From NCBI RefSeq assembly GCF_964213995.1, contig NW_027590138.1, positions 620,001 through 684,000 of the forward strand: DNA of 64,000 nucleotides, in the 5' to 3' direction. This document shows positions 5,492-60,743 of the stretch, one piece after another. The notes beneath the pieces are model-generated. The model searched no databases. It worked only from the letters and a program-made list of their open reading frames with translations, and was not told where the DNA came from. Position numbers and translations under genes: made by a program. Numbering within the stretch: position 1 is the stretch's first letter; each line of letters starts with the position of its first letter. This DNA comes from Mustelus asterias (Eukaryota).

Positions 5492-5519
5492 GTGGTGACG
5501 GTGGCACAAAGCTGCTGAC

Positions 5520-8500
5520 ATGAAGGTGACCATAGCCAGCCTCAACATCAACGGCAGCAGTGGGCCACACCGCAGGTTCCAGAACTTCTCGGTCCTCCGT
5601 GACGGGAAGTATGCGGTGTGTTTCCTGCAGGAAACCCACACCGTTCCGGGAGACGAAGCCCAATGGCTCCTGGAGTGGCGAGGGGGGGTCTACATGAGCC
5701 ACCTCACGCTCGCTTCTTGCGGGGTGGCTATCTTGTTGGCCCCGCGTTATAAGCCGGAGATCTTGGGGGTCGAGGAGCCGGTGCCAGGCCGGTTGCTGCA
5801 CTTGACGGTCCGTGAGGGGGGCGTGGTCATTCACTTGCTGAATGTCTACGCCCCGACCGCCGGACCGCAGCAAACGACTTTCTACGAGAAAGTGTCCGCT
5901 CACATCGACACCATCGCGGGGGGCGAATGCATTATCCTCGGGGGAGATTTCAACTGCCTCCTCGAGGCACGGGACCGCACCGGCCCCTGGCTGCGCACTC
6001 CGGCGGTGGTGAAGTTGCGGGACCTGATCGGGTCCCACGACTTGGTGGACGTCTGGAGACATCTCCATCCTGGCTCCAGCGCCTTCACTTTCGTGAGGCC
6101 TGGAGTCGGAGCGTCCAGGCTCGACCGCCTTTACATTTCGAAGGCGCACGTGTCCGGCGTGTCCTCGGTCTCCATGCGGCCGGTGTCGAGCACGGACCAC
6201 AGCCTGGTGTGGGCGGACTTTGCGCCGTCTCGCATCCGGCGGGGGTCCGCGTACTGGCACTTTAACAACACGCTGCTGGAGGACGAGCGCTTCCTGGACT
6301 CGTTCCGTCGATTCTGGGCCGGCTGGAGAAGGAAGCGGGGAGGCTTCCCCTCCTTGAGGCTCTGGTGGGATGTGGGCAAGACTCACGTCCGTACCTTCTG
6401 TCAGGGGTACGCGAGGGGGTCGACAAAGAGGCGGAAATCCAGGCTCGAGGAGTTGGAGAAGGAGGTGCTCGACCTGGAGGCACGTCTCAGTCGGCCTGAC
6501 GCGGACCCGGCCCTGCGTTCGGAGTACAGGGAGAAGAAGGACGCGCTGCGAGACCTGCAGCTTGCCAGGTCTCGCGGCGCGTACGTGAGGTCGCGGCTCC
6601 AGTTCCAGGTGGACCTGGACCGCGGCTCCCCCTTCTTCTACTCGCTGGAAAGAGGGCGGGCTAACCGTCAGCAGCTCCTTACGCTGCTGGCCGACGACGG
6701 TTCCCCCGTCTCGGATCCGGAGGGCATCCGGGCCATTGCCCGGGAGTATTACACCTCGCTCTTCTCTCCGGATCCGTCCAGCGAGGATGCCCGCAGACTT
6801 CTGTGGGAGGACCTGCCGCAGGTCGGCCCGGAGGGCGTCGGCAGGCTCGAGGCCCCTACCACCATGGCCGAGCTGACCGGCGCCCTAAATGGCCTCAGCC
6901 GGGGCAAGGCCCCTGGGCTGGACGGGCTGACAGTAGAGTTCTTCAGGGCGTTCTGGGACGTCCTGGGGAGCGACTACGCGGGGGTCCTGGGGGAGAGCGT
7001 CGCTACCGGGGAGATGCCCCTTTCGTGGCGCAGGGCCGTCATTGCCCTGCTGCCCAAGAAGGGGGATCTCCACCTGCTCAAGAACTGGCGCCCGGTCTCC
7101 CTCCTCAGCACGGATTATAAAATCTTTGCCAGGGCTATGGCTTCACGCCTTGGATCCGTGCTGGACCACTTGATCCACCCTGACCAGTCCTACACGGTCC
7201 CGGGCCGTTGCATACATGACAATCTCCACCTGGTCCGGGACCTAATCCATCACACCCAGAGGGCTGGTCTGTCGGGCGCCTTCCTGTCATTAGATCAGGA
7301 GAAGGCGTTCGACAGGGTGGAGCACGAGTATTTACTCGGGACTCTGCGGGCATTCGGGTTCGGGACGCATTTTGTCGCCCGGATCCGATTACTGTACTCT
7401 GCCGCAGAGTGTCTGATTAAGGTTAACGGGTCCCTGACGGCGCCCCTTCGCTTCGGGAGAGGAGTACGGCAGGGCTGCCCCTTGTCCGGCCAACTGTATT
7501 CCGTATGCGTGGAGCCATTCCTGCGCCTCTTGCGGAGGAGGTTGTCAGGTTTGGTCCTGCGCGGACCGGACGTAGGGGTGGTCCTGTCAGCTTACGCCGA
7601 CGACGTGCTCCTCATGTTCACGGACCCGGCTGACCTGCGGAGGATGCGAGAATGCCAGGCGGTGTACTCCGCCGCGTCCTCCGCCAGGATCAACTGGGCC
7701 AAGTGCTCCGGACTCCTTGTCGGTCCTTGGGAGACGGACCCCCTTCCGGAGGAGCTCAGGCCTTTCACCTGGAGCAGGACCAACCTCCTCTACTTGGGGG
7801 CCCATCTCTGCCCAGCCGAGGAATCCTGGCCGGCGAACTGGCGGGAGCTGGAGGCCAAAGTCTCTGCCCGCCTGAGTCGCTGGACAGGACTGCTCCGTGT
7901 GCTGTCCTATGGGGCATGAGTTCACGTCATAAACCAGCTGGTCGCCTCCATGCTGTGGTACGGGCTGGTCCCTTTGACCCCTCCCCTGGCTTTGTCGCCG
8001 ATATCCAGAGAGCCCTCCTGCGGTTCTTCTGGGGCAATCGACTGCACTGGGTCCCTGCTGCGGTTCTGCATCTCCCGCTTGAGGAGGACAAACAAGGTCT
8101 CGTGTGCCTCCACACTCAGATAGCGACCTTCCGCCTCCAGGCCCTGCAGAGGTACCTTTACGTTGAGCCCCCTCCACAGTGGTGTGCCATGGCGACACAT
8201 TTCTTCCGCCAGTGGCACGGCCTCAATTATGACGTGCAGCTCCTGCATATCGAACTGGGGCATCTTTCGACCGCCCTGCAGGAGTTGCTCGTCTTTTACC
8301 AGGACCTCCTCACTGTCTGGAACACGGTCGCCTCGCGACGCAGCTCTCCCCCGTCAGGAGTAGCAGCTCTCGTGCGAGAGCCGCTGCTCAGGAATCCGCT
8401 CCTCCAGCCGTATGACTTCAGGTGGCTGGCAGAGAGGAGGGCTGTGGACGCCGGGGTGACCAGAATCGGGGACGTGCTCGATGGCGGAGGAGCGGGCTGG

Positions 8501-11520: not shown

Positions 11521-12019
11521 GAGTATTTCCAGCTGCTGCTCCAACCGAACCATGGGGTCTGTGAGGAGCTGCAGCTGGTCACACTTCCAGCAGACATAGA
11601 CGCAGGGACACGAGAAATTTCCCTAATCTCCCACATCTGGCAGGAGGAGCATATCATTGTCATTACTGCCATCTCTGCACTTGGACGCTGAAAAAAAGAA
11701 AAGTATAAGAATCTTACTTGCTTTTGACAAAGAGGGACATTCACAAACTCTGGGTGGCAACACCCAGAGGGGTCGCAGAACGAGATTCTGGGGTCGGGAG
11801 CTCCGAGGCAGCGATAACTGTGGAGCCTCAACTGAATGTTCACAGCTTTCTGTCACCTTTAGATTCTCGAGATTTATTTTAAACAATGGGCGTGGCCTAA
11901 ATTGACGCCGTTCGGGTCTGAGATATTTCAGTTCAGCTGAGATCCAGTGTCCCAGAGCAGTCCAGCTCTGCAGTCTCCAGCTCCCCGTCATTTAAACCAT
12001 CAGCTCCGGCAGCAGAGCG

Positions 12020-12062
12020 ATGGGAATCCTTCTTGTTTTCAGCCTGTGTGTCTGTTTACCCC
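12020..12062 (+). CDS. Leader exon of NAR-TCR V
   Basis: ATG at 12020, MGILLVFSLCVCLP + 1 nt, GTGAGT donor at 12063; phase matches the V exon. Confidence 0.88.
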
Positions 12063-12211
12063 GTGAGTACGAATCGCACTAACCCACATTGTGTGGATTG
12101 AATATAAAGCTGCCCCAGTCCATCCCAATTACAGACACTGTCTGGGGTTTTAAGCCTCGCTGTGTGGTTCAGCTCTGATGGTCCAGTAAACTCTCTGTGT
12201 TTAATTTCCAG

Positions 12212-12491
12212 GGTCTTTCAGTCAGTCAGTGATACAGAGCCCGGAAGCGGTGACCAGGAAGGAATGTCAGTCTCTCACCATCACCTGCGTTTTCCATGGT
12301 TCTGACTCCTTAGAAAATGGACATTTCTTCAAACAAACCCAGACCGGGACGGAGTGGGAGCGGATCTCCAGCGGAGGGAGATTTGTTGTGTCTGTGAACA
12401 AAGCAGAAAAGACATTTTCGCTGGAAATTCGGGATGTGAGAGTTGAAGACACCGCCACCTATTACTGTAAAGCTCAGTACTGGTACTGGCA
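12212..12491 (+). CDS. IgNAR-like variable segment (NAR-TCR V)
   Basis: TTTCCAG acceptor; QSVIQSPEAVTRKECQSLTITC...ERISSGGRFVVSVNKAEKTFSLEIRDVRVEDTATYYCKAQYWYW; short domain lacking a CDR2 region as in IgNAR V; extra Cys in FR1. Confidence 0.92.
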
Positions 12492-12529
12492 CACCGTGAT
12501 GGGCCTCGACTTCCAGCGATACAAAAACT
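12492..12529 (+). other. RSS, 22-bp spacer (NAR V)
   Basis: CACCGTG-22-ACAAAAACT. Confidence 0.9.
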
Positions 12530-12893
12530 CTCCCTGCAGATTCTCACGGAATAAAATGAAAAACCGGAGTTCATCTGCCCTGAATACCGCCCCCCCCCAC
12601 CCCCTCCCACCCGCCCCCCGCCAATCCCCACAGTTGCACCTCAGACTCTCGGTGCCGCATTCTCGTTTTTAATGAGACCTGATTACTCCCGTTAACAATT
12701 TCAGTTTCATAAATATGGAGTGTGAGTGGATGGCGGTGTCATTTCTGGGAGTGTTGTCCGTGAATGGAGAATGGAAATGACTGATCCCAGTTACAAACCC
12801 ACACACCAGATGGGATCCTGGGCTCACAACCGGAGCTGGCAGCCACATTCCCCGCGGTTTAATTCATGTTCCAACATTCCACCCAGTACCCGA

Positions 12894-12964
12894 GGTTTTG
12901 ATGCTGAATTATAACACTGTGTAACTTTGGGAGAGTCACAGTGGAAGGAAGCTGAGCAAATACC
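12894..12964 (+). other. NAR-TCR D segment (coding 12922-12936) with 12/12 RSS
   Basis: GGTTTTGAT-12-CACTGTG / TAACTTTGGGAGAGT / CACAGTG-12-GCAAATACC. Confidence 0.88.
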
Positions 12965-13276
12965 TGTGCACAATTACAATATACATTCTCAGGGCACAGA
13001 CAGTGAATCATTGGTTTGACGATATTATCGCTGTAATCTGGATTACTTCTACTGTAATCTCCACCACTCACATCTTTCTTTGATTTTTTTTTGCTATTTA
13101 TGAAGTTAATATTTCCTCCCTGTGGCCATTTACTGAGAGCTTGGGCCTCACAAAGTACAATTTGAACCGACAGAGACGTTGAAACGTTGAATATTGTTTA
13201 TTAATTTTAAATCCCCCGAATAATTGGACACTTCCGAATGACTGCTGATGGTTTCCCGGCAGATTGAGATGTCGGT

Positions 13277-13368
13277 GATTCTTGTACCGGGGAGACTGAG
13301 AGAGGTGCCACTGTGTACTGCATCGAAATATGTGGATGGATCCGGGACGGTGGTGACTGTCATAGCCG
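13277..13368 (+). CDS. NAR-TCR J segment (coding 13316-13368) with 23-RSS
   Basis: GATTCTTGT-23-CACTGTG; TASKYVDGSGTVVTVIA; GTAAGT donor at 13369, phase 1. Confidence 0.9.
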
Positions 13369-14419
13369 GTAAGTGACTCCAAACCCCGCCGTGTTACAGA
13401 CTGTCTCGTTTGATGTTCCCCATCACTTTATCATTGTGACCTGTCTCGTTTCAATCCAATCGGATCTTCCAATGGAAAATCATCCGTTACAGATATCGAG
13501 TTGGGAGCAGGATGTGATTCTGAGTCGGGTCCAGGTCAGTCCCGGGGAAATGTGTGTGTGTGAGAGAAGCCTGATGGAGTCAGCGGTCAGTGGGGCAGGG
13601 ATAGTGGGTTGAGGCTTGTGGGTGGGGGTGGTGGTGGGGGGCGGGGGGGGGGGGTGGTGGGGGGTGGCGAGGCGCGGGATGCGGGTACTAGTGTTAGGTG
13701 TGATGTGGGAGTTGACAGCATCTGGGCGATTATTGGTTTAAGGGGCACATCAACATCAAGAACTCTGACACTCCTCATAGTTTTTAACAAACTCAAATTG
13801 ACAACACTCCGGAATCCACTCTGGATGTGAAATGTGACTGGGAGAGGTTTGTCTCTCGCTTACAACCCGGCAGCGGGGTCTCAGAGCTCTCTCCTGGGCA
13901 GTAGATTGCAGTCCCAGCCGTGCAATGTCAAGAAACTACCAGCTGAATGAGATCGATGTCACTGCGGCCAGTCCATTTAACTGCAGTGACTCACTCAATA
14001 CCTGACCCGGGAGGCAAACAGAAAATTAAACCACGGGCTTCAGGTATAAGGGATCTTGTTGTAGGTCCAAAGGAATTTTGTAATAAAGAAATCAGTGACT
14101 GAAATTAGTGACATTGGGCCTGATATTTCTTTAAATATCCTCCTTATAAACAATAACTTTACCCATTTTCCACTGTTAGTGGTTAGTTCTGGACCACAGG
14201 TCTTCAGTAAATTGCTGGGATATTTCCAGAGCCCATAGCCTTTGCAGCATCCTGTGCCTTCAGCCGGTCCTGAAGTCACGTGGAGTGAATCAAATTGGAT
14301 GAAAACTGACATCAGTGGTGCTGGGGACCTCCGGAGGAGATTGAGATGGATCATCCACTCGATATCTCTGGATGGGGATTCTTGCCAAGGCTTCAGCTTT
14401 ATCTTCACCGGATTGACAA

Positions 14420-15190
14420 ATCAGTTATAGGGATGTCTGGTGTTGCTGCCGGCATTGCCTCCTGCAGTCTTCATTGAACCAGTGTTAATCCCTCGTTTGC
14501 TAATGTCAATGCAGGGGACACGCCGGACCATGAGGTTACAGATTGTGTTTGAGTGAAAATCTGCTGCTGCTGATGGCCCATAGTGCTTCATGGATGCCTA
14601 GTGATGAGTTGCTGGATCTGCTCGAAAACTATCCGATTTAGCACGGCGACTGTGCCATACTACACGATGGAGTGAAGCTCAATGTGAAGACAATAATTTG
14701 TGTCCACATGGACTGCATGTGGTCACTTCTACTGATACTTCTCTGGTGATGCATCTGCGGCAGTAAGGTTGCTGAGGCTGAGGTCAAATATGCTTTATTC
14801 CCTATTGGTAGTTTCCTCGCTACCTACCGCAGTCCCAGTCTGGCAGTTATGTCCAGCTATGTGCTACCGAGCCAGTCGTGGTGATAGATATTGAAGCCCC
14901 CTAACCAGTATACGTTATGCACGCTTGACATCCTCAGTGCTTCATCCAGATGTTGTTCAACATGGAGGAGTGTAGATATATCAGCAGAGGCACGTTGTAA
15001 TCAGCAGGCCGCTTCCTTGCCCATGTCTGACCTGGTGTCATGAGACTTCATGCGGTCCAGAGACAGTATTGTGGACTCGCAGGGCAAGTCGCTCCCGACA
15101 ATATCGTGCCGCCAGCTCTGCTGAGTCTGTCCTGCCAATGGGTCAGGACATACCGGATTTGTGATGGTTGTTTGTGGGCGATTGCTGTAA
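14420..15190 (-). mobile_element. Old non-LTR retrotransposon fragment (endonuclease region)
   Basis: Degenerate GxFN-like motif on the minus strand near 14890; no open frame. Confidence 0.4.
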
Positions 15191-16699
15191 TGTATTTGTA
15201 GCCCTGATCAGTGTTAACTGAAATCACACAATGCAGTAAGAGAGGAGGATGATGTGGTAATCATATCAAGGAGAACAGGAACAATAGGAAACAATTGTGA
15301 AGGGAATATTCATTTAGAACAAGCGATAGAGAATTAATCGGCATGGAGAGAAAGATTGGATTATTATTTCTGGAGAATACTGAAAATCAATAAAACTCAA
15401 GGATTGAAAACGAGATTTGCGGAGATTCGAACTGAACTGGAATACTATGTGAGATTTGATCTCCTTTAGTTTGGAAGGATGTACATACTTCGGAGGGAAT
15501 TTAACTAATATTCACAAAACAGAGTCTTGGGATAAAATGATTGTCCTTTGAGAAGTGATTGAAGACCCATTGCCTATTTTCCCTCGACTGATATTAGAGG
15601 AGTGAGGAGTGATCTCAGTAGAATTTGTTATATTCTCAAAGGACTTGAAAGGCAAATTCTGGGTGGTAGTTTTTCCAATCAGGGAAGTCTATAATTTGGA
15701 GTCACATTTTCAGAATAACGGTTCAGCAATTTGGACTGCGGAGAGGAGACATTTCTTCAGTCAAAGCCATTGTGGTGAATCTGCGAATTCCAGACCACAG
15801 AGAGCCGTGGATAGTTAGTGTTGAACGCATTCAAGGCAGCGTTTGTTATATATTTGTACACTAAAATGGTCAGGGCAAATGTGGGCAACACAGGAGATAA
15901 GCTGCAACATAACTGAGTGATGGAGCAGCTTTGAAATGTGGAACAGGAGTTTCTATACAATGTACAATTTAGAGAAAACTCTGCCCAGAGAACCCGGGAG
16001 AGAATCAGTTAATGAGCAGAAAAAAATGAAATTGAGAGAGATCCAAAAGAGGCAGTTCCCAGTGAGTAACAGTAAAACCACTGCGGAAACTGAACAGGAT
16101 GAACGCAACTGACAACTACGAGACTTTGGGACGCGTTCCCACGACTCAGGAAAACCAAATAGCACAAAGTAAATGAAATGAAAATGACTAGATATCTCAA
16201 TGTAAAGAGAAGGGGAGAAAAATGATACCAATAGATAGAAAATAAACAAATAGATTAAAAAGCAAACATTGACTGCCGGGAGGTGTTAAACTGAAATAAA
16301 TAAATGACATTTGGCCACCGATAGTCAACATGGTTCGGCCCCATCGGAGCTGATGAATCGCAATCACTCTGTTGGATCTTGCTGTGCGCTGTGATGTGAC
16401 GCAGCTGGGTTGTTCTTCGGCAATCATCTCCAGAAAAGGATTGCGTCACTGATAATAAAATGTTCCCTTCGATATCTCTCTCAAAAAGGAAAATAGAAAC
16501 TAAAACCTGACATATATCATAGAATAAGTTAGCGTGGAAGGGCGACATTCGGCCCCTCGGGTAGATGGTGCCACTTGATAAATGAAATCCAATTCTTCCA
16601 CGAGCCATGAATTTTCCCCATAAACCTGTTATTTACCTGTTCAGGGATGTGATCATTGCTCATTCATAATTCATTGTTAAACCAGCTCCTACTAAGCTG

Positions 16700-17185
16700 A
16701 CAGTGTATTCATGGATTCACAGAATTTACGGCAGAAAGACTTCGATCCAAACTGATCCATGCCGATCAAAATGCCCATCTAAGCTCAGCCATTCGCCTGC
16801 ATTTGGCCCATATCTCTCTAAAACTTCCCTATCCATGTATCTGTCCAAAAGACTTTTAAATGTTGTCAATGTCCCTGCCTCAACCACTCCCTCCGGCAGC
16901 TCATTCCACATACGTAGCACCCTCTGTGTAAAAAAAAGTTGCTCTGCAGGTTCCTGTTACTTCTTTCCCTATTCCCTCTTGCTCTCGACTCCCAAAACCT
17001 GGAAGAAAGACTGAGTTCATTCGCCCTATCCGTGCCTGTCATGATCTTATACACTTCTATAAGATCACCCCTCTATCTCCTATGACCAAAGGAAAAAGTC
17101 CAAACTCTCCCTATAACTCAGTCCCTTGAGTCCTGGCAACATCCTTGTAAATCTCTTCTGCATTCCCTCCAGTTTAATAACATCG
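16700..17185 (-). mobile_element. CR1-type LINE 3' fragment
   Basis: WNELPEGVVEAGTLTTFK and YKIM motifs on the minus strand. Confidence 0.85.
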
Positions 17186-17216
17186 TTACAGATCATTAGA
17201 ACTTGTGCAAAATAAC

Positions 17217-17245
17217 ATGTACCTCATTGTACACTGGTTTATAGC
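17217..17245 (+). pseudogene. Possible relic leader exon of the supporting V-delta (wrong phase)
   Basis: ATG-YLIVHWFI + 2 nt then GTAAGT, 133 bp before the V acceptor; splicing would be out of frame. Confidence 0.5.
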
Positions 17246-17378
17246 GTAAGTCAATATCGTTCCATTAGAAATAAAATAATAATAACTCCGCATAAAACTG
17301 AGCTACTCCTGCGACTGACACAATCTCTGACTAAAAAATGGCAAAACCTAAACAAACGTTTTTTTTCTAATCCTGCAG

Positions 17379-17684
17379 GTTCCTCTTCCCTGGTATCCAA
17401 GAATCCGTCTCTACAAATCTCTGCTGCCGATGACACGGTTACATTAAGCTGTGAATATTCAGGAATCTGTCAGTACACAGTACACTGGTACAGTCAGCCC
17501 CCAGGGCAGGCTCTGAAATACTTGCTGCAGAAACACACTTCAGGAGGGGGCAATAAAGAAAACGCTGCCGGGGAGAGAATTTCTGCTTCTATCGATTCTG
17601 TCCAGAAAATCAGCCGGTTAAAGATCTCCAAACTGCAACTAAGCGACTCGGCTGTCTATTACTGTGGACTGAGTCGGCACATAG
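17379..17684 (+). CDS. Supporting TCR delta V segment of NAR-TCR (no usable leader)
   Basis: TCCTGCAG acceptor, phase 1; SSSLVSKNPSLQISAADDTVTLSCEYSGICQYTVHWYSQPPGQALKYLL...LQLSDSAVYYCGLSRHI; Cys in CDR1; absent from the ORF track because it has no start codon. Confidence 0.92.
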
Positions 17685-17967
17685 CACAGTGATACAGACC
17701 ACGGAGAGAGCTGTACAAAAACCTAAACATGGTGAGGATTACAGACACAGTGATACAGAACACGGAGAGAGCTGTACAAAAACCTAAACATGGTGAGGAT
17801 TACAGACACAGTGATACAGAACACGGAGAGAGCTGTACAAAAACCTAAACATGGTGAGGATTACAGACACAGTGATACAGAACACGGAGAGAGCTGCACA
17901 AAAACCTGAACATGGTGAGGATTACAGACACAGTGATACAGAACACGGAGAGAGATGTGCTGAAAAC
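17685..17967 (+). repeat. Tandem array of 23-bp-spacer RSSs, 61-bp period
   Basis: CACAGTG at 17685, 17746, 17807, 17868, 17929; the first four have ACAAAAACC after 23 bp, the fifth has GCTGAAAAC. Confidence 0.95.
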
Positions 17968-25717: not shown

Positions 25718-26037
25718 GTAGCCTGGCTGCATCCGCAGTCATCCACCAGCCGGAGGCAGAGGTGAGGGTCCAACAGGGAGCCACCACGACAATCACCTGC
25801 TCATACACAGAGGTGGAGAGAGCTTGCTTGGTCTGGTACCGGGAACCTCTCCACCCAGCCATGGGGGGAAGTCCCGAGTATACTGTCGTCCGCTGCACCG
25901 ATGGTTTCAGCGACAGCGCCACATTTTCCAGGCGTCGCTTTTCCTCCTCCCTGAGCAAAACTTACAGAATCATCAGTCTGACAGTTGCACCAGTGACAGC
26001 TGAGGACTCCAGGAAATACTTCTGCATCTTAAACACA
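25718..26037 (+). CDS. TCR alpha/delta-type V segment with two extra cysteines
   Basis: CCTTCAG acceptor; VIHQPEAEVRVQQGATTTITCSY...ACLVWYRE...VVRCTDG...SLTVAPVTAEDSRKYFCILN; open frame. Confidence 0.85.
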
Positions 26038-26076
26038 CACACTCGCACATTCCAGGCAGCAGTCTCTGCATAAACT
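26038..26076 (+). other. RSS, 23-bp spacer, non-consensus
   Basis: CACACTC-23-GCATAAACT directly after the V. Confidence 0.7.
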
Positions 26077-28172: not shown

Positions 28173-30012
28173 GCCCATCACAATAATGGATGTCTTTTGA
28201 CTTAAACAGGTGTCCAGTCGGAAGTAGTTCTGACGCAGCCAGAGGCAGAGAAGTGGTTCCCAGTGTAGTCCCTGTCCCTGACCTGCAATACCAGCGGCTT
28301 CGACTTCAGTGGCTATTGGCTGTACTGGTACTGTCATGGTCCCTGAAAGAGGCCAGACTGGCTAGTTTCCTACTATGATGAAGACTTCCACTGATACTGT
28401 GGGGAGACTCGAGGACGATTCACTGTTTCCAAAGAGCTTGCACACAATATATTTGCTTTGGATGTCAGGTTTCTGACGATGGAGGAAACAGCTGCTTATT
28501 AGAGTACACAGTTAACTCAGTGAGGCGGGTCAGCCCCAGATTTGTAAAAAAAACCCAAACTAGAGGAACTGCACACAGTTTGTCCCCTTCATCAAACTCC
28601 AATAGATTCATTGCTGACAACAATCCATGGAACCATAGTGTTACTCTACCACACAGAATAAGGCCATCCATCTAATGTACGGATAATATCACACCCGGAC
28701 AGTCACTTCCTCATAAATCTCATGTGGTTTAAGTTTGCTAAGTGGAATGAAATTTTTGTAATATCACTCAAACTTTTCAAATCCTGACAGGGCTGGTCAG
28801 ACTGGATTCAGGAATGTTGCTTCCTCTAGCTCCGGGGTTTGGGGAGGGGGGGGGGGGGGCGGTGGACGGAGGGGGGGGGGGGGGGTGGAGCGTCTAGAAC
28901 AGATTGTCAGCGTTTCAAAATATGTGATAGGTCATTTATGAGAAATGTCTTCACTCAGAAGCTGTGTAACTCTCCACCTCAGGAAGTTGCGGAGGCCAAG
29001 TATCTGAATATATTTAAAAATAAAATAGATAGATTTCTAGACTCTAAAGTGTGAAGGGTTGTAGGGAGAAAGGAGTATTGCAATAGAAGATCAGCCATGA
29101 TCATAATGAATGATGGAGCAGGCTCTAAGGGCCGAATGATCTATTCCCGCTCCTATTTTCTGTGATTCAATGCTAAAAAGTCGACCATGTGGTGCTTTAA
29201 CAAGTACTATTGGAAAGTGTACAGCCGCAGCATGGAACATATTATCATGATCCAAGATATTAGGCTTAATCGCCTATAAAAGCTACCTGGATCTGCACCG
29301 GATGTTCTCTAACCTCCAAGACGACGGACCAGATGCCACTGTGCTACTGCGGCCCGTTGACTGAATGAATGAAGCTCCAACAACACTCAAGAAGCTCGAC
29401 ACTATTTAGTACAAAGCAATTCAGTTGATGGCAACCAATTCCACAAATACTCACACATTGGCAGACGTGGCACAGTGGCAAACATTTAGACATGCACGAA
29501 CTCGCTAAGGCTCTTTAGGCAGCACTTTCCAAACCTACAAACACTGCCATCTAGGGGATAAGAGCAGCAGATACCTGGGACCACCACGACCTGGAGGTTC
29601 ACCTCCAAATCACTCCCATCCAAACTGGGAAAGATTCTCCAGACTACACACGTAACTACAGAATAATGGATTATTCTTTACACAGCTGGGATCTGGAATG
29701 CATTGTCTGGATGAAGATTCAACAACAAATTTCCTTGAGCATTGGATATATTGCTTGAATTGGAATATGAAGCGATCTGTGGAATGTACAGGGGAGATTA
29801 TCGGTGTTGTTATGTCAGTGAATTGAATGGGCAGTTTGGACAGCATGTGACGGTCATGCTAAGAGCCTACCTTATTAAATCATTCTGCTAAAGCAACATG
29901 GAATCAGTCCCCTAATGAAAATAATGTTCCAGACGGTACTGTTAACGGAAACATGAGGAATATGATTCAATTCGCCCTGAGTAACAATGAATCTTTGCAG
30001 CTTTATTTAACA

Positions 30013-30230: not shown

Positions 30231-30282
30231 ATGAGCATGGCGCTAGCAATATCTCTCGGTCTGTTTATTGGCTTCTTATCCT
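30231..30282 (+). CDS. Leader exon of IgH-like V
   Basis: MSMALAISLGLFIGFLS + 1 nt, GTGAGT donor. Confidence 0.88.
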
Positions 30283-30401
30283 GTGAGTAGTTGGATATTC
30301 TCAGAAAGCTCCCATAGTCTCTGTTTAACATTAATCATTCCCTGTGGCGTGACACAAACTGGATTCACCTCACCATAATTATTGTTTCTTTCGGTTAGCA
30401 G

Positions 30402-30706
30402 GCGTCCAGTCGGATGTGGTGTTGATCCAGCCAGAGGCAGAGATAGGGATAGTCGGGCAAACCCTGACCCTAACCTGTAAAACCAGTGGATTTGATCTTG
30501 GGAGATACACCATGCTTTGGTACCGACACAGTCTCGGGAAGGGACCGGGCTGGCTCCTTTGGTACTACAATGAAAATAGCAAGAATTACAATCCGGAGTT
30601 TGGTGAACGAATCACTGCAACCAAATACCTTTCCAACAGTGTATTCGTGCTCTCTATTAGGACTTTAACAATGGGAGACAGCTCTACATATCACTGTGCA
30701 CAACGG
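30402..30706 (+). CDS. IgM-VH-like V segment in a TCR locus (TAILV / VH-delta-like)
   Basis: TAGCAG acceptor; VQSDVVLIQPEAE...LTLTCKTSGFDLGRYTMLWYR...ITATKYLSNSVFVLSIRTLTMGDSSTYHCAQR; FR1 and CKTSGFDLG resemble shark IgM VH. Confidence 0.88.
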
Positions 30707-30745
30707 CACAGTGATATAGATCACACCCAGCCCTGTACAAAAATC
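30707..30745 (+). other. RSS, 23-bp spacer (IgH-like V)
   Basis: CACAGTG-23-ACAAAAATC. Confidence 0.92.
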
Positions 30746-34419: not shown

Positions 34420-37400
34420 TTGTGGAATACGTCTGTTGTTCCCAATGTAGGATGTGGGAGGTCCTGGAGGCTCCTGGTCTCCCGGACGTCCATATCTGTG
34501 ATGGGTGTGTTGAGCTGTGGTTCCGAAGGGACCGTGTTAGAGAACTGGAAGTGCAGCTCGAGGATCTTCGTCTGGTTAGGGAAAATGAGGAGGTGATAGA
34601 CAGGAGCTATCATCAGGTGGTCACACCAGGGCCATGGGAGGCAGGCAAGTGGGTAACGGCCAGGAGGAGGAAAGCTCAGGTGATAGAGAGCACCCCGGTG
34701 GATGTGCCCCTTCACAATACGTACTCCTGTCTGAATACTGCTGTGGGGGACAGCCCACCTGGGGGAAGCAGCAGTGGCTGTGTCTCTGGAGCAGGGTCCG
34801 GCCCTGTAACTCAGAGGGCTAAAGAAAGGAGAAGGAAGGCAGTATTAATCGGGGACTCAACAGTAAGGGGGTCGGACAGGTGTTTTTGCGGAGGCTGACT
34901 GGAGTCTCGGATGATTGTCTGCCTCCCGGGTGCCGGGATCCGCGATGTCTCTGGTCACGTCCCAGAAATCCTGAGGAGGGAGGGAGAGGAGCCAGAGGTC
35001 GTGGTACATATTGGTACCGCTGACATAGGTAGGAAGAGGGAAGGGGTCATGAAAAGAGAATATAGGGAGTTAGGTAGACAATTGAGAAGGAGGAACGCAA
35101 AGGTAGTAATCTGAGTATTACTGCCTGTGCCACGGGAAAGTGAGAGCAGGAATGGAGTGAGGTGGAGGATGAATGCGTGGCTGAGGGATTAGAGCAGGGG
35201 GCAGGGATTCGGGTTCCTGGATCATTGGGACCTCTTTAGGGGCAGGTGTGACCTGTATAAAAAAGACGGGTGGCACTTGAATCCCAGGGGGACCAATATC
35301 CTGGCAGGAAGGTTGGCTAAGGCTACTGGAGAGACATTAAACTAGAAAGGTTGGGGGAGGGAATCGAGATGAGGTGACTGGGAGCGAGGAGGGTATCCCA
35401 CAAATAGAGAGGGATTGTAGACAGCGGAAGAGGGAGAATAGACGGGTGATAGAGAACGGGAGAGCTCAGACCAATGGTTTGAGATATGTCTATTTTAATG
35501 CCAGGAGTGTAGTAAATAAAGTGGATGAGCTTAGAGTGTGGATCGATGCTTGGAAGTGTGATGTGGTGGCCATTACGGAGACTTGGGAACAGGGACAGGA
35601 CTGGACACTTCAGGTGCCGGGTTTCAGATGTTTCAGAAAGGGCAGAGAGGGAGGCAGAAGAGCGGGGGGAGTGGCACTGCTGATCAGGGATATTGTCACA
35701 GCTGTAGAGAAGGTGGACGCCGTGGAGGGGTTGTCTACGGAGTCTCTGTGGGTGGAAGTTCGGAGCGGGAAGGGGTTGATAACTTTGCTGGATGTTTTCT
35801 ATAGGCCGCCCAATAGTGACAGGGCTGCTGAGGAGCAGATAGGGAAACAGATCCTGGAGAGATGTAGGAATAACGGTTGTCGTGTTGGGAGAGTTTAATT
35901 TCCCAAACATTGATTGGAATATCCCTAGGGTAAGGGGCTTGGATGGGGAGGAGTTTGTGAGTTGTGTACAGGAGGGTTTCCTGACACAGCATGTGGATAA
36001 GCCTACAAGAGGAGAGGCTGTACTCGATCTGGTACTGGCTAATGAGCCTGGACAGGTGTCGGATCTCTCAGTGGGGGAGCATCTTGGGGATAGTGATCAT
36101 AACTCTATCTCCTTTATGCTAACATTGGAAAGAGATAGGATCAGGCAAGCTAGGAAAGTGTTTATTTGGAGTAAGGGGAAATATGAAGCCATCAGGCAGG
36201 AGATAAGCGACATAAATTTGAAGGAGGTACTCTCGAGGGAAAGTACCGAAGTAAGGTGGCAGATTTTCAAGGAATGTTTGTCTGGAGTTCGACATCACAA
36301 CGTTCCGATGAGACAGGGAGATTTTGGTAGGTTACGGGAACCGTGGTGCACGAAAGCTATGCTGAACCTAGTCAAAAGGAAAAGGAAAGCGTACAATAGG
36401 TTCAGAGAGTTGGCGATGATGGGGATCTAGATGAGTATACGGCTTGTAGGAAGGGACTGAAGAAGGAAATTAGGAGAGCCAGAAGGGGTCACGAGAAGGC
36501 CTTGGCAGGTAAGATTAAGGAGAACCTTAAGGCGTTCTATAAATATGTGAAGAGTTAAAGGATGAGATGTGAAGGAATAGAACCTATAAAAGCTGAAGGT
36601 GAGAAAGTCTGTATGGAACCGGAAGAAATAGCAGAGGTGCTTAATGAATGCTTTACCTCGGTATTCACGTGGAAAAAGACCTGGGTGGTTGTACTACAGG
36701 ATTGCGGCGGACTGAGAAGATTGAGTTTGTCGACATTAAGAAAGAAGATGTGTTGGAAATTTTGAATAAAATCAAGTTAGATAAGTCGCCGGGACCGGAT
36801 GGGATGTACCCCAGGTTACCGTGGGAGGCGAGGGAAGAGATTGCAGAGCCTCTGTCGATGATCTTTGCGTCGTCGATGGAGACGCGAGAGGTTCCGGAGG
36901 ATTGGAGGATTGTAGATGTGGTTCCTTTATTCAAGAAAGGGAATAGGGATAGACCACGAAATTACCGACCGGCGAGTCTAACCTCAGTGTTTGGTAAGTT
37001 GATGGAGAAGATCCTGAGGGACAGGATTTATGAACATTTAGAGAAGTTTAGTATGCTCAGAAGTAGTCAGCACGGCTTTGTCAAAGGCAAATCGTGCCTT
37101 ACGAGCCTGGTGGAGTTCTTTGAAAATGTGACTAAACACGTTGACGAAGGAAAAGCGGTAGATGTAGTTTACATGGACTTCAGCAAGGCGTTCGATAAGG
37201 TCCCCCATGCAAGACTTCTTGAGAAAGTGAGAGGGCATGGGATCCAAGGGGCTGTTGCCTTGTGGATCCAGAACTGGCTTGCCTGCAGAAGGCAGAGAGT
37301 GGTTGTAGATAGGTCTTTTTCTGAATGGAGGTCGGTCACCAGTGGAGTGCCCCAGAGATCTGTTCTGGGACCCTTGCTGTTTGTCATTTTCATAAATGAC

Positions 37401-38298
37401 CTGGATGAGGAAGTGGAGGGATGGGTTGGTAAGTTTGCCGACGACACGAAGGTTGGTGGTGTTGTGGATAGTTTGGAGGGATGTCAGAAGCTGCAGTGTG
37501 ACATAGATAGGATGCAAGACTGGGCGGAGAAGTGGCAGATGGACTTCAATCCGGATAAATGTGTAGTGGTACACTTTGGCAGGTCAAATGGAATGAAGGA
37601 GTATAATATCAAGGGTAAGACTCTTAGCAGTGTCGAGGCTCAGAAGGACCTTGGAGTCCGGGTCCATAGGGCTCTTAAATCGGCCTCACAGATAGAGGAG
37701 GTGGTTAAGAAGGCGTATGGTGTGCTGGCCTACATCACTTGAGGGATTGAGTTTAGGAGTCGGGAGATAATGATGCAGTTTTATAAGACCCTCGTCAGAT
37801 GTAGAAATTATTGAAAGGGTGCGCAGAAGATTTACAAGGATGTTGCCTGGATTGGGTGGCATGCCTTATGAGGATAGGTGGAGAGAGCTCGGTATTTTCT
37901 CGTTGGAGAGACGAAGGATGAGAGGTGACCTGATAAAGGTGTACAAGATGTTGAGAGGTATAGATCGGGTGGATTCTCAGAGGCTTTTTCCCAGGGCTGA
38001 AATGGCTGCTACGAGAGGACACAGGTTTAAGCTGCTGGGGAGCAGGTACAGAGGAGATGTCAGGGGTAAGTTTTTCACTCAGAGGATGGTGGGTGAGTGG
38101 AATCGGCTACCGTCAATGGTGGTGGAGGCAAGCTCGATAGGGTCTTTTAAGAGACTTCTGGATGAGTACATGGGACTTAATAGGATTGAGGGTTGTAGGT
38201 AAGCCTATATATAGGCCAAGGTAGGTAGGGACATGACCGGCGCAACTTGTGGGCCGAAGGGCCTATTTGTGCTGTAGTTTTTCTATGTTCTATGTTCT
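34420..38298 (+). mobile_element. Near full-length CR1-type LINE (ORF1 with Zn-finger/GDS esterase-like region, ORF2 APE-RT), inactivated
   Basis: CSQCRMW and LIGDSTVR in ORF1; NARS, AITETW, FADDTK in ORF2; multiple stops/frameshifts; (CTATGTT)n tail. Confidence 0.9.
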
Positions 38299-39331: not shown

Positions 39332-40698
39332 ACATAGAACATAGAACATAGAAAGCCACAGCACAAACAGGCCCTTCGGCCCACAAGTTGCGCTGATCAT
39401 ATCCCTACCTCTAGGCCTATCTATAGCCCTCAATCCCATTAAATCCCATGTACTCATCCAGAAGTCTCTTAAAAGACCCCAACGAGTTTGCCTCCACCAC
39501 CACCGACGTCAGCCGATTCCACTCACCCACCACCATCTGAGTGAAAAACTTACCCCTGACATCTCCTCTGTACCTACCCCCCAGCACCTTAAACCTGTGT
39601 CCTCTTGTAGCAACCATTTCAGCCCTTGGAAATAGCCTCTGAGAGTCTACCCTATCCAGACCTCTCAACATCTTGTAAACCTCTATCAGGTCACCTCTCA
39701 TCCTTCGTCTCTCCAGGGAGAAGAGACCAAGCTCCCTCAACCTATCCTCATAAGGCATGCCCCCCAATCCAGGCAACATCCTTGTAAATCTCCTCTGCAC
39801 CCTTTCAATGGCTTCAACATCTTTCCTGTAATGAGATGACCAGAACTGCGCGCAGTACTCCAAGTGGGGTCTAACCAGGGTCCTATAAAGCTGCAGCATT
39901 ATCTCCCGACTCCTAAACTCAATCCCTCGATTAATGAAGGCTAGTACGCCGTACGCCTTCTTGACCGCATCCTCCACCTGCGAGGCCGATTTAAGAGTCC
40001 TATGGACCCGGACCCCAAGGTCCTTCTGATCCTCTACCCTGCTAAGAATGGTACCCTTCATATTATACTGCTGCTTCATCCCATTGGATCTGCCAAAATG
40101 GATCACTACACACTTATCCGGGTTGAAGTCCATCTGCCACTTCTCCGCCCAGTCTTGCATTCTATCTATGTCTCGCTGCAACTTCTGACATCCCTCCAAA
40201 CTATCCACAACACCACCTACCTTGGTGTCGTCAGCAAACTTACCAAACCATCCCTCCACTTCCTCATCCAGGTCATTTATGAAAATGACAAACAGCAAGG
40301 GTCCCAGAACAGATCCCTGGGGCACTCCACTGGTCACTGACCTCCATGCAGAGAAAGACCCCTCCACAGCCACTCTCTGCCTTCTGCAGGCAAGCCAGTT
40401 CTGGATCCACAAGGCAACAGCCCCTTGGATCCCATGCCCTCTCACTTTCTCAAGAAGTCTTGCGTGGGGGACCTTATCGAACGCCTTGCTGAAGTCCATA
40501 TAGACCACATCCACCGCTCTTCCTTCGTCAATGTGTTTGGTCACATTTTCAAAGAACTCAACCAGGCTCGTAAGGCACGACCTGCCCTTGACAAAGCCGT
40601 GCTGACTACTTTTGATCATACTAAACTTCTCTAGATGATCATAAATCCTGTCTCTCAGGATCCTCTCCATCAACTTACCAACCACTGAGGTTAGACTA
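39332..40698 (-). mobile_element. CR1-type LINE 3' part with an uninterrupted 422-aa RT frame
   Basis: ORF 39417-40685 with [10 protein letters not shown] and FADDTK; closely similar to 36990-38298 in inverted orientation. Confidence 0.92.
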
Positions 40699-41729
40699 AC
40701 AGAGAAGACAAACTATTTTGTATCATATCTAAAAGTGGATGTGTGAGATTGTATAAGTTCCTCAGTTTTGTCATTGGAGCAGTGGGATTGGGCTGGAATC
40801 CCCAACGATTTCGAGATGATAACCTTACACAAAATTAACCAGGAGAAATGAGGTGCGGAAGTTGATCATTACTGAGACAGAAGACAGCTGAAACCTGCCA
40901 TGTGTACAGAAAAACATGCATTGTCGCCACTTCTCAAACCTCCCTCGACAGTATTTTAAATCCCACGAGCTCTACCTTCTTGAAGGCCAGGGCCAGCAGC
41001 CACATTGGAATCACCATCGCCTGGAAGTTGTTAAGGTGTCAGAGAAAACAAAACAAGTATGTTACGAATCCCATATGTTAGGTTATGACTAGACCTCAAC
41101 CGTGTTTCAATTTTGACATTAGTGTGAGGATAAGGTGTTTCGCTCCAGGTCTGATTCCATTGACACACAAGGAAGCGCTTATCAAAACTAACTTCATTTA
41201 ACAGTACAGTTTGACCATAACGAACGAATTAGTTTCACTTTTCCCAATTGAAATGCTTAGCTTAACAACATGCAATTCATAGCCGCTAATTCATCCCTAT
41301 CAGTTCAAATTCAAGCAATATTCCTCTGATCGACTTGGACTCCTCTTCAAAATCAGTAACAATCCCCTGCTTATGCGCTTGGACTTGTTAAAAGTCCTAA
41401 AACACCTCTGGAGAGAGAGGCAGACAGAGAGACTCCTGTCTTCTGCCAGCCCCACACAGCAGCCTTCAGAGAGAGAGAGAGATAGACAGAGAGGGAAAGA
41501 CCTCTTTCTTCTTTCAGGACCAAGCAGAAACTGACTGTTTAAAAATAAAATAAAGCATTGTGTTTTCCTTGCAAGCCCATTCACATGACCCTGCCTCTGC
41601 CAATCAACCCAATCAAAGCCCTACTCTGAAACCACAGGGGAAAAACCAAAATAAACAAAAATGCATTAACTCAGATTAAAATAAACACATACTTAGCTAA
41701 AATGAATCATTTGCCTGTATTAACAGTAT

Positions 41730-44925: not shown

Positions 44926-45619
44926 CTCTGTCATTGTGAAATCTATTGGTGGGTTATGTAGCTCCTCAGCCTGGTGTTAAGTGTAATTCTACTGTGACGC
45001 TTTTATATCGCAAGTATCCATTTAATTATGACGAATGGAATTTTCAATGGAAAGTAGGACAGGAAGTAGCACATCTTGCATTTAGAATTTCTGCATCCCC
45101 AGTATCTCGAAGGGGATGGCAAAAATAAATTTTGCATCGGTTTGTCACATTACGTGTAAAAAGAGATTTTTAACAATCCTCTATTTTGTCCGCTATTCAA
45201 CTTCATTTGTGTGTGGAGATATCCCCATGCCTTTGTTACCTCTGGATTCGCCTTTCAAGTTTTATATCCCACATTCCTCACTGCATTAACTTCAGTTGGT
45301 CCAAACTATAATATCCAGAACTTCACTCCCTCCAAGTCTGGCTGATCTCGGGCAGGAGGTGCCGTAGTGTCACGGTCAGGTTGCTGTATTAGCGATTAGC
45401 CAGAGCCACGGGCTCTCTGCACGTGGGTTCAAATCTCACCATGGCAAGTTATTTGAATTGCAACTCAAGTCATAAACTTGGAAGGGAAGGTTTTGTACTC
45501 AGTCATGTTCACTGTGAATCTGGTTCAATTATTCCTTTTAACGTTATCTACCAACCTTACGTGGTCTGACTGCACATCGACAGCAATGGACAGACCTCTG
45601 GATTGACGTAACAATCCGA

Positions 45620-46581: not shown

Positions 46582-46665
46582 AGTTTTTGTACTGGCATGT
46601 ATCACTGTGGGGGAGCTACGTGGGACCACAGTAGCTGAATCTCCCTCAACGCCCGTACAATAACC
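46582..46665 (+). other. TCR delta-type D segment (coding 46610-46626) with 12/23 RSS
   Basis: AGTTTTTGT-12-CACTGTG / GGGGAGCTACGTGGGAC / CACAGTA-23-ACAATAACC; open in all three frames. Confidence 0.93.
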
Positions 46666-46847: not shown

Positions 46848-46935
46848 GGATCTTGTTACGGGATCAAACTCTGTGCAACATATGAAAAGGCTAAGCTCAT
46901 CTTTGGCAACGGGACCAGGCTGATTGTGGAACCCA
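46848..46935 (+). CDS. TCR J segment J1 (coding 46876-46935)
   Basis: GGATCTTGT-12-CTCTGTG; TYEKAKLIFGNGTRLIVEP; GTAAGT donor. Confidence 0.92.
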
Positions 46936-48245: not shown

Positions 48246-48337
48246 GGTTCTGACATGGAGAGTAATCGCAGTGTACGCTCGTGCTTCTTACAGACCATTA
48301 ATATGCGGTGGTGGAACCAAATTGAGCGTGGAGCCAA
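48246..48337 (+). CDS. TCR J segment J2 (coding 48274-48337), CGGG in place of FGXG
   Basis: GGTTCTGAC-12-CGCAGTG; YARASYRPLICGGGTKLSVEP; GTGAGT donor. Confidence 0.8.
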
Positions 48338-49167: not shown

Positions 49168-49258
49168 GCTTTCTGCTTGGGCAATAGTCACTGTGTGTAT
49201 ATTGCTGATAATGAAAAACTGATATTCGGCAGCGGCACCCGACTGCAGGTTGTGCCAA
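49168..49258 (+). CDS. TCR J segment J3 (coding 49196-49258)
   Basis: GCTTTCTGC-12-CACTGTG; YIADNEKLIFGSGTRLQVVP; GTAAGT donor. Confidence 0.92.
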
Positions 49259-50799: not shown

Positions 50800-50875
50800 A
50801 TATTTTGTTGTAGCTGTTACTACCGAACTGAGAAGCTTGTCTTTGGCAAAGGGACCAAACTCACTGTGGAGCCCA
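50800..50875 (+). pseudogene. TCR J segment J4, intact coding/donor but no valid heptamer
   Basis: TEKLVFGKGTKLTVEP + GTAAGT; ATATTTTGT-12-TACCGAA. Confidence 0.78.
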
Positions 50876-59818: not shown

Positions 59819-59896
59819 GGTTTCTGTCTGAGAAATTGTTACTGTGCTAAGTTAAGCTAACGTTCGGCAGCGGCACCCAGGTGACAGTTGTACCAA
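59819..59896 (+). CDS. TCR J segment J10 (coding 59847-59896), 5' in-frame stop
   Basis: GGTTTCTGT-12-TACTGTG; *VKLTFGSGTQVTVVP; GTGAGT donor. Confidence 0.85.
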
Positions 59897-60655: not shown

Positions 60656-60743
60656 CGATTTTGTACCATCTGGAATCACTGTGCAAACTATGCAACCAGA
60701 AAGCTTACCTTTGGCAGTGGAACCAAACTCACTGTAGAACCCA
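60656..60743 (+). CDS. TCR J segment J11 (coding 60684-60743)
   Basis: CGATTTTGT-12-CACTGTG; NYATRKLTFGSGTKLTVEP; GTAAGT donor. Confidence 0.92.

Follow-up and report, generated by a model that had tools for sequence, protein, structure and literature searches.

The question raised by this locus is whether a doubly rearranging NAR-T-cell receptor (NAR-TCR) cassette stands alone or belongs to a larger gene unit. The cassette lies in a stretch of 64,000 nucleotides of Mustelus asterias DNA (RefSeq assembly GCF_964213995.1, contig NW_027590138.1, positions 620,001 to 684,000 of the forward strand); this whole stretch is referred to as the window, and positions are counted from its first letter. 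In the published descriptions, taken here from the available portions of the sources cited throughout, NAR-TCR cassettes are placed within one TCR alpha/delta translocon (PMC1845163, PMC5931798, PMC3457774, PMC12227049). The window cassette heads a 62-kb same-strand unit, in which it is followed by a V-like exon, an immunoglobulin heavy chain (IgH)-like V, a single D-delta, six J-delta segments and an intact C-delta of the unit's own; it is one of 15 such cassettes among 19 C-delta copies in the assembly. Each unit is probably an antibody-style cluster, likely assembling a three-domain delta chain locally. The initial annotation correctly recognized a NAR-TCR cassette; it treated the cassette as a lone unit, and overlooked both the downstream cluster and an array of recombination signal sequences (RSS) behind the second V.

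The window contains an intact NAR-TCR cassette

The layout proposed in the initial annotation, i.e. leader-V(22)-D(12/12)-J(23)-intron-V(23), was recovered base for base. Its parts, together with the RSS array, are as follows.

12020..12062, + strand, NAR V leader exon with a phase-1 GT donor; in-frame splice to the V exon at 12212
12212..12491, + strand, NAR-TCR V exon, open, with a framework region 1 (FR1) Cys (RKECQS) and Phe replacing the canonical Trp (GHFFKQ)
12492..12529, + strand, NAR V 22-spacer RSS, CACCGTG-22-ACAAAAACT
12894..12964, + strand, NAR D (12922-12936) with a 12-spacer RSS on each side
13277..13368, + strand, NAR J (13316-13368; DGSGTVVTV, phase-1 donor) behind a 23-RSS (13277-13315)
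13369..17378, + strand, intron of 4010 bp, GT..AG, phase 1, from NAR J to the supporting V (GCC G/GT TCC)
17379..17684, + strand, supporting V-delta exon, leaderless, open, with a complementarity-determining region 1 (CDR1) Cys (GICQY)
17685..17958, + strand, 61-bp tandem repeat, 4.5 copies, with four perfect 23-RSS, the first of which is the supporting V's own

Thus, the 4010-bp intron with its in-frame phase-1 splice is present, as are the two cysteines previously reported for the NAR V and the supporting V. RSS were matched to the consensus with at most one heptamer and at most two nonamer mismatches. The window contains 15 such matches, whereas 100 sequences generated from its dinucleotide frequencies averaged 0.76 and never exceeded 4; it contains four perfect RSS as opposed to none in the simulated sequences. 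Therefore, these sites do not reflect chance. The RSS in the window are 12/23-compatible for two separate V(D)J rearrangements, and RAG-type joints are present in sister copies.

The assignment to the NAR-TCR class was upheld by phylogeny. In a V tree of 36 rows, which was made without nurse-shark cDNA and anchored on a white-shark model labelled NARTCRdV, the window NAR V belonged to an 11-member clade of NAR-TCR V (support of 95 in the Shimodaira-Hasegawa-like approximate likelihood ratio test, SH-aLRT) that is sister to three IgNAR V from the same genome, and the window supporting V fell within a clade of 11 supporting V. The row nearest to the NAR V (90% identity over 88 columns) was white-shark LOC121270138, which is labelled NARTCRdV in Table S1 of PMC12227049, and the top solved-structure matches of the NAR V were VNARs. 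NAR-TCR is marked by an a-b loop Cys, the lack of the WYRK-motif Trp, and a leaderless delta V with a CDR1 Cys (PMC1845163). The window cassette has a leader, the a-b loop Cys, a Trp-less WYRK position and a leaderless supporting V with the CDR1 Cys. Moreover, among aligned database models, the FR1 Cys and the Phe at the Trp position were each present in 39/39 and the CDR1 Cys in 35/39; in the cassettes that head units, the supporting-V CDR1 Cys was present in 14/15. In total, judged from its sequence, the window cassette is an intact member of the NAR-TCR class, which, as had been annotated, is not new; the cassette by itself is ordinary. The claim that automated calling misses most of such a cassette holds only in part: database models of close sister copies include leader, NAR V, J and supporting V, under names that are uninformative or wrong.

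A disulfide between the FR1 and CDR1 cysteines that tethers the NAR domain has been proposed in the literature and would likely form here. In a two-domain model of the sister protein P0004, the predicted TM-score (pTM) was 0.51 and the predicted local distance difference test (pLDDT) value was <50 at residues 28-31 and 127-141. A fold search with this model returned generic matches of the single-chain variable fragment type only, with TM-scores <0.4; the single-domain model had a V-type strand pattern.

The unit carries its own C-delta, apart from TCR-alpha

Downstream of the cassette, the unit comprises the following features.

25718..26073, + strand, V-set exon, open and RSS-less, with two extra Cys and a splice acceptor; still open at 94-99% identity in the long units, and on a long branch in the V tree
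28212..28500, + strand, IgH-like V relic, broken (three stops; end approximate)
30231..30745, + strand, intact IgH-like V: leader 30231-30282, V 30402-30706, 23-RSS 30707-30745
46582..46665, + strand, D-delta (46610-46626) with a 5' 12-RSS and a 3' 23-RSS, open in three frames
46848..46935, + strand, J-delta 1, 12-RSS
48274..48337, + strand, J-delta 2, RSS poor, CGGG motif; probably weak or dead
49196..49258, + strand, J-delta 3, 12-RSS
50810..50875, + strand, J-delta 4, RSS none found; likely dead; start approximate
59819..59896, + strand, J-delta 5, 12-RSS; in-frame stop at the 5' edge, usable only once trimmed
60656..60743, + strand, J-delta 6, 12-RSS
G000:C106:688169-688480, about 691207-691269 and from 693810, + strand, the unit's C-delta exons, about 4 kb past the window end; three phase-1 exons with open frames

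A leader was looked for at the V-set exon (25718-26073) and was not found. The intact IgH-like V is 60% identical to the V of a catshark model labelled IgWVTCRD. About 1.1 kb before D-delta, an isolated RSS-like site in reverse orientation, with a spacer of 13 bp (45488-45516), could possibly be the relic of a second D.

Models named 'alpha chain-like' would make the six J's and the C alpha segments; this identity was ruled out by three lines of evidence. First, with P0064 as query, which is 97% identical to the C exon of the window unit, the best solved-structure matches were TCR-delta chains (E 1e-14, as opposed to 1e-7 for alpha). Second, the C exon of the window unit carries CLxxxFxP, a trdc signature (PMC10322711). 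Third, in a constant-domain tree that took in 8 of the 19 C-delta copies, these were placed together with the TRDC of skate and stingray and separately from alpha, with a support of 100/100. On these sequence comparisons, we conclude that the constant gene of the unit is C-delta.

The canonical order is 5'-trdc-traj-trac-3' with C-delta nested 5' of J-alpha and C-alpha (PMC10322711). The genome has two C-alpha genes, marked by diverged matches to the transmembrane (TM) exon and each behind its own long J-alpha array, at G000:C71:18419464 and C546:240219; their C exons are clearly different. The J-alpha array on C546 is much enlarged by tandem repeats. On C71, the 106 kb that precede the first J-alpha are gap-free and contain no C-delta; the nearest one is 6.1 Mb off. 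On C546, no C-delta was found, with an assembly gap (129550-129749) preceding the J-alpha array and 90-100 kb not covered. Neither C-alpha gene, then, has a C-delta 5' of its J-alpha and C-alpha as in a canonical alpha/delta translocon. Conversely, the C-delta of the window unit is followed over 150 kb by V's without J-alpha, and a comparison of the C-delta 3' flank with the DNA before J-alpha gave no match beyond short dispersed repeat-like pieces.

C-delta units are repeated in the genome

A genome search identified 19 C-delta C exons and 19 matching TM exons; the C exon is stop-free in 19/19 and the TM exon is near-invariant. In the DNA surrounding the 19 copies, a NAR V, a NAR J and a supporting V lie 16-58 kb upstream on the same strand in 15 cases; the remaining four are C71c, C401, C138 and the short contig C3311. 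D-delta is present in 18/19 C-delta regions, and the 19th contig ends too soon. By pattern search, there are two to six J-delta per unit.

In 18 copies, the D-to-C blocks agree at 84-99.9% and, with single linkage at 99%, sort into 11 groups. Three deep unit types, which are 84-89% alike, each have the cassette, D, J and C together; for the cassette block, the identity table covers 5 of the 15 units. The 19 copies encode 14 distinct C-exon proteins, and three C-delta are located on scaffold C71, at 7.1, 11.0 and 12.3 Mb. Because a diploid has at most two alleles per locus, there are therefore at least 9-10 loci if all copies paired off, barring plainly duplicated contigs.

Some units contain pre-existing joins

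D-delta is without its 5' RSS in 7/18 copies. C119, C96, C436 and C850 each have an intact supporting V that has been joined to D-delta; in C401, a broken supporting V is joined and, in C71c, a conventional V; in C138, a candidate V-D join is flagged. The supporting-V/D junction is identical in C119, C96 and C436 despite a difference of 0.7-3% between their blocks and, therefore, this junction likely represents a single inherited join that was later duplicated.

NAR D-J joins are present in C173 and C90, and the C173 junction recurs in read run X2. In C122, an inversion (G000:C122:393141-398935; L176, L181) between the NAR-D 3' 12-RSS and the supporting-V 23-RSS has destroyed the cassette. The coding joint and a perfect signal joint are both kept, and therefore RSS of these types are cut by RAG. 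Joins seen once, such as those in C850 and C122, may have arisen somatically and been captured in the assembly.

A pre-joined IgH-like VDJ with an open frame is located at G000:C71:10999006-10999300 (L034), 24 kb before a joined D-delta and J-C block. In 19 regions around cassettes without C-delta, 17 of 20 NAR V's are RSS-less and run into a D-type tail. Separately, cassettes that lack a C-delta frequently face a second supporting V, which is broken, in opposite orientation and roughly 1 kb from the first; this was noticed at L161-L173 (C447, C786, C90, C157, C160, C115, C88, C71, C87, C108 and C138).

A read contig matches the predicted splice from NAR J to the supporting V

Runs X1-X4 are all from one study, and the kind of run is not on record. 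In a contig from run X3, position 13368 is joined to 17383 with four variant letters between, which is the predicted splice. Thus, the splice from NAR J to the supporting V was found as annotated, in a sister copy rather than in the window copy. Moreover, the pieces listed from run X3 end at exon edges, and there is a spliced-looking contig over the C exon.

In the mechanism that we propose, RAG would join NAR V, D and J (22/12 and 12/23) and, in a second rearrangement, would bring the supporting V together with D-delta and J-delta, which lie 29-43 kb downstream (23/12 and 23/12). Splicing, at phase-1 junctions throughout, would then connect the leader, the NAR VDJ, the supporting VDJ and C-delta. 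In the resulting chain, the NAR domain would be unpaired on top, where the FR1-CDR1 disulfide would likely hold it.

Are the units independent clusters?

Several observations weigh against independent clusters. First, 16/19 C-delta are off the long C71 scaffold and certain pairs agree at 99.3-99.9% and may be allelic; for both reasons, the number 19 overstates the number of loci. Second, in run X1, the depth over the C region is about 120 in the 5' part (one contig) and 475-508 in the exon core, and many single intron pieces have a depth of 45-60; depth does not equal copy number here. Third, many NAR cassettes have no C-delta nearby, and in three of these, traced for 50-60 kb, no D, J or C was found. 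Fourth, the alignment of the C90 supporting V begins only at residue 14 and this V is possibly broken, and two of the six J-delta in the window (J2, J4) have a poor RSS or none. Fifth, the C850 cassette is 99.4% like that of C154 and its D-C block is 99.9% like that of C71b; therefore, C850 suggests either cross-unit joining or a captured somatic event. Finally, no transcript in runs X1-X4 was traced to the window copy or across supporting V-D-J-C; consequently, the earlier description of the cassette as functional stands for its intact sequence and not for its expression.

The fragmented assembly (5313 contigs), the several near-identical pairs and, in runs X1 and X2, a summed depth that is low for part of the C region would all fit an ordinary cassette in a translocon with a single C-delta, in which the additional C-delta copies are uncollapsed haplotypes or mis-assembly. 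This explanation is largely refuted and very improbable: 14 distinct C-exon proteins and blocks that are 84-89% alike exceed the diploid maximum of two alleles, three copies are megabases apart on scaffold C71, and variant letters marking different assembled copies occur in runs X1-X4.

Alternatively, the copies could be real without being independent clusters: they could form one dispersed array, every V being free to join every D-J-C block, or include a few blocks that are used, the rest being recent segmental-duplication passengers. C850 resembles a join between two units, and conventional and IgH-like V's also feed D-delta, as in the C71c junction and as flagged for C138; likewise, many cassettes and V arrays are without C, and certain units break off behind the IgH-like V. 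However, all 19 C exons are open with a near-invariant TM exon, the three deep unit types each retain cassette, D, J and C, and the common C119/C96/C436 junction keeps the cassette fused to its own D-J-C block. Altogether, we consider this alternative unlikely, and prefer units that each assemble their chain locally.

The supporting V is followed by an array of RSS

The supporting V's own perfect 23-RSS (17685-17723) is followed head to tail, at a spacing of 61 bp, by additional perfect 23-RSS at 17746, 17807 and 17868. Across the 15 units examined, each of the 11 supporting V's that remain unjoined has at least two RSS copies, and the read-through tails of whale, zebra and epaulette shark models resemble the 61-bp repeat (protein tails judged by eye). 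The literature searched made no mention of the array; most subscription papers and the primary nurse-shark papers fall outside that literature and could mention it.

The frame of the supporting V runs into a TGA where the first heptamer ends and, because of this in-frame stop, a join at RSS copies 2-4 would be unproductive. Together with the lack of an observed transcript of the window copy, this stop would be compatible with a window copy that is intact and yet silent or inefficient, e.g. because the spare perfect RSS steer RAG into dead joins. By contrast, the presence of multiple RSS copies at every unjoined supporting V argues against this explanation, as do the junctions in C850 and C122, which lie at the V end itself, i.e. 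the first RSS was used; moreover, a failed join would presumably leave RSS 1 free for a later J. We therefore regard a silent window copy as very unlikely and the spare RSS copies as likely passengers. A 'second-chance' role for the spare copies was considered and not adopted.

Other features of the window

In the region 5' of the leader (11889-11997), there are motifs that we take to be GC-box-like, CRE-like and AT-rich. Reverse-transcriptase remnants of the long interspersed nuclear element (LINE) type (Pfam RVT_1) are present at 5499-7916, 36648-37739, 39420-40712 and 54935-55462; the first additionally has an endonuclease domain.

Comparison with known receptor systems

The cassettes share with published NAR-TCR a leader-bearing, Trp-less IgNAR-like V with an a-b loop Cys, their own D and J, a leaderless supporting V with a CDR1 Cys and, downstream in the units, a C-delta that they would probably use. 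They differ in that 15 cassettes here each head their own D-J-C-delta unit, as opposed to the one translocon in the available descriptions. In the elasmobranch receptor complex, TCR alpha/delta is a translocon and IgH consists of miniclusters (PMC12227049). For catshark and stingray, Table S1 of that source, which covers chosen scaffolds only, has a single C-delta model, directly preceding TCR-alpha. For white shark, it has no C-delta model and flags NAR-TCR V's as germline-joined ('gj'). The M. asterias locus resembles this complex in having NAR-TCR cassettes and alpha/delta V's over a long region and resembles catshark in having an IgH-like V directly 5' of D-J-C-delta; it differs from the complex as described there in having 19 C-delta, none of which is beside either C-alpha.

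In a profile search that was word-limited and missed known members, e.g. that of stingray, there was one C-delta-like cluster each in catshark, sawshark, skate and bamboo shark, two in sevengill and ten in M. asterias. The M. asterias database C-delta models match the C exon of the window unit at 84-99%. The basking shark model P0014 strings together a NAR V, a supporting V, a J, IgH-like V's, a J and C-delta, hinting at a similar neighbourhood in another shark order. We found nothing on multiple shark C-delta genes in the literature searched, which does not extend to the primary nurse-shark papers, where additional C-delta could be mentioned.

Shark IgH and Ig light chain (IgL) miniclusters are repeated V-D-J-C units, some of which are inherited pre-joined (PMC3149040, PMC2193156); by contrast, the units described here contain T-cell receptor genes, with several J's and additional V's per unit. 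In newt, TRD is separate from TRA and includes a germline-joined TRD gene (PMC12698447). Given newt TRD and the flags in the white-shark table, TRA/TRD separation and germline joining are not new by themselves; newt TRD differs in having no NAR cassette and, as far as described in that source, no many-fold repetition of the cluster. TCR-mu has tandem (V-D-J)-(V-[D]-J)-C clusters that encode a three-domain chain, with a supporting V that is pre-joined or of low diversity (PMC7615758, PMC3457774). The M. asterias units would be alike in working to marsupial and monotreme TCR-mu (TRM) and are not homologous to it: their two V domains are of the NAR and delta types, the top V being NAR-type rather than VH-type, and their C is C-delta and not C-mu. 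Moreover, most supporting V's here still rearrange, and the joined ones are V-D with J free.

In total, the cassette itself is known, and what is new is a NAR-TCR-headed TCR-delta unit that is repeated many-fold and detached from TCR-alpha. With somewhat less confidence than for the individual units, we favour the idea that, in a shark lineage, a single TCR-delta translocon gave way to antibody-style clusters, at least 9-11 in number and separate from TCR-alpha, the majority of them NAR-TCR-headed and several with an inherited pre-join between supporting V and D-delta. This conversion would be an independent, unfinished repeat of the mammalian TCR-mu path. The split between clusters for shark Ig and translocons for TCR is a standard statement (PMC12227049, PMC6795676). 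If our reading is true, NAR-TCR-headed TCR-delta clusters break this split, and one genome supplies intermediates for the origin that has been proposed for TCR-mu, i.e. TRD duplication, the formation of clusters and a supporting V that is pre-joined. As C-delta and V sequences vary between units, local rearrangement, allelic exclusion with many delta loci and the advantage of a fixed supporting V all become testable.

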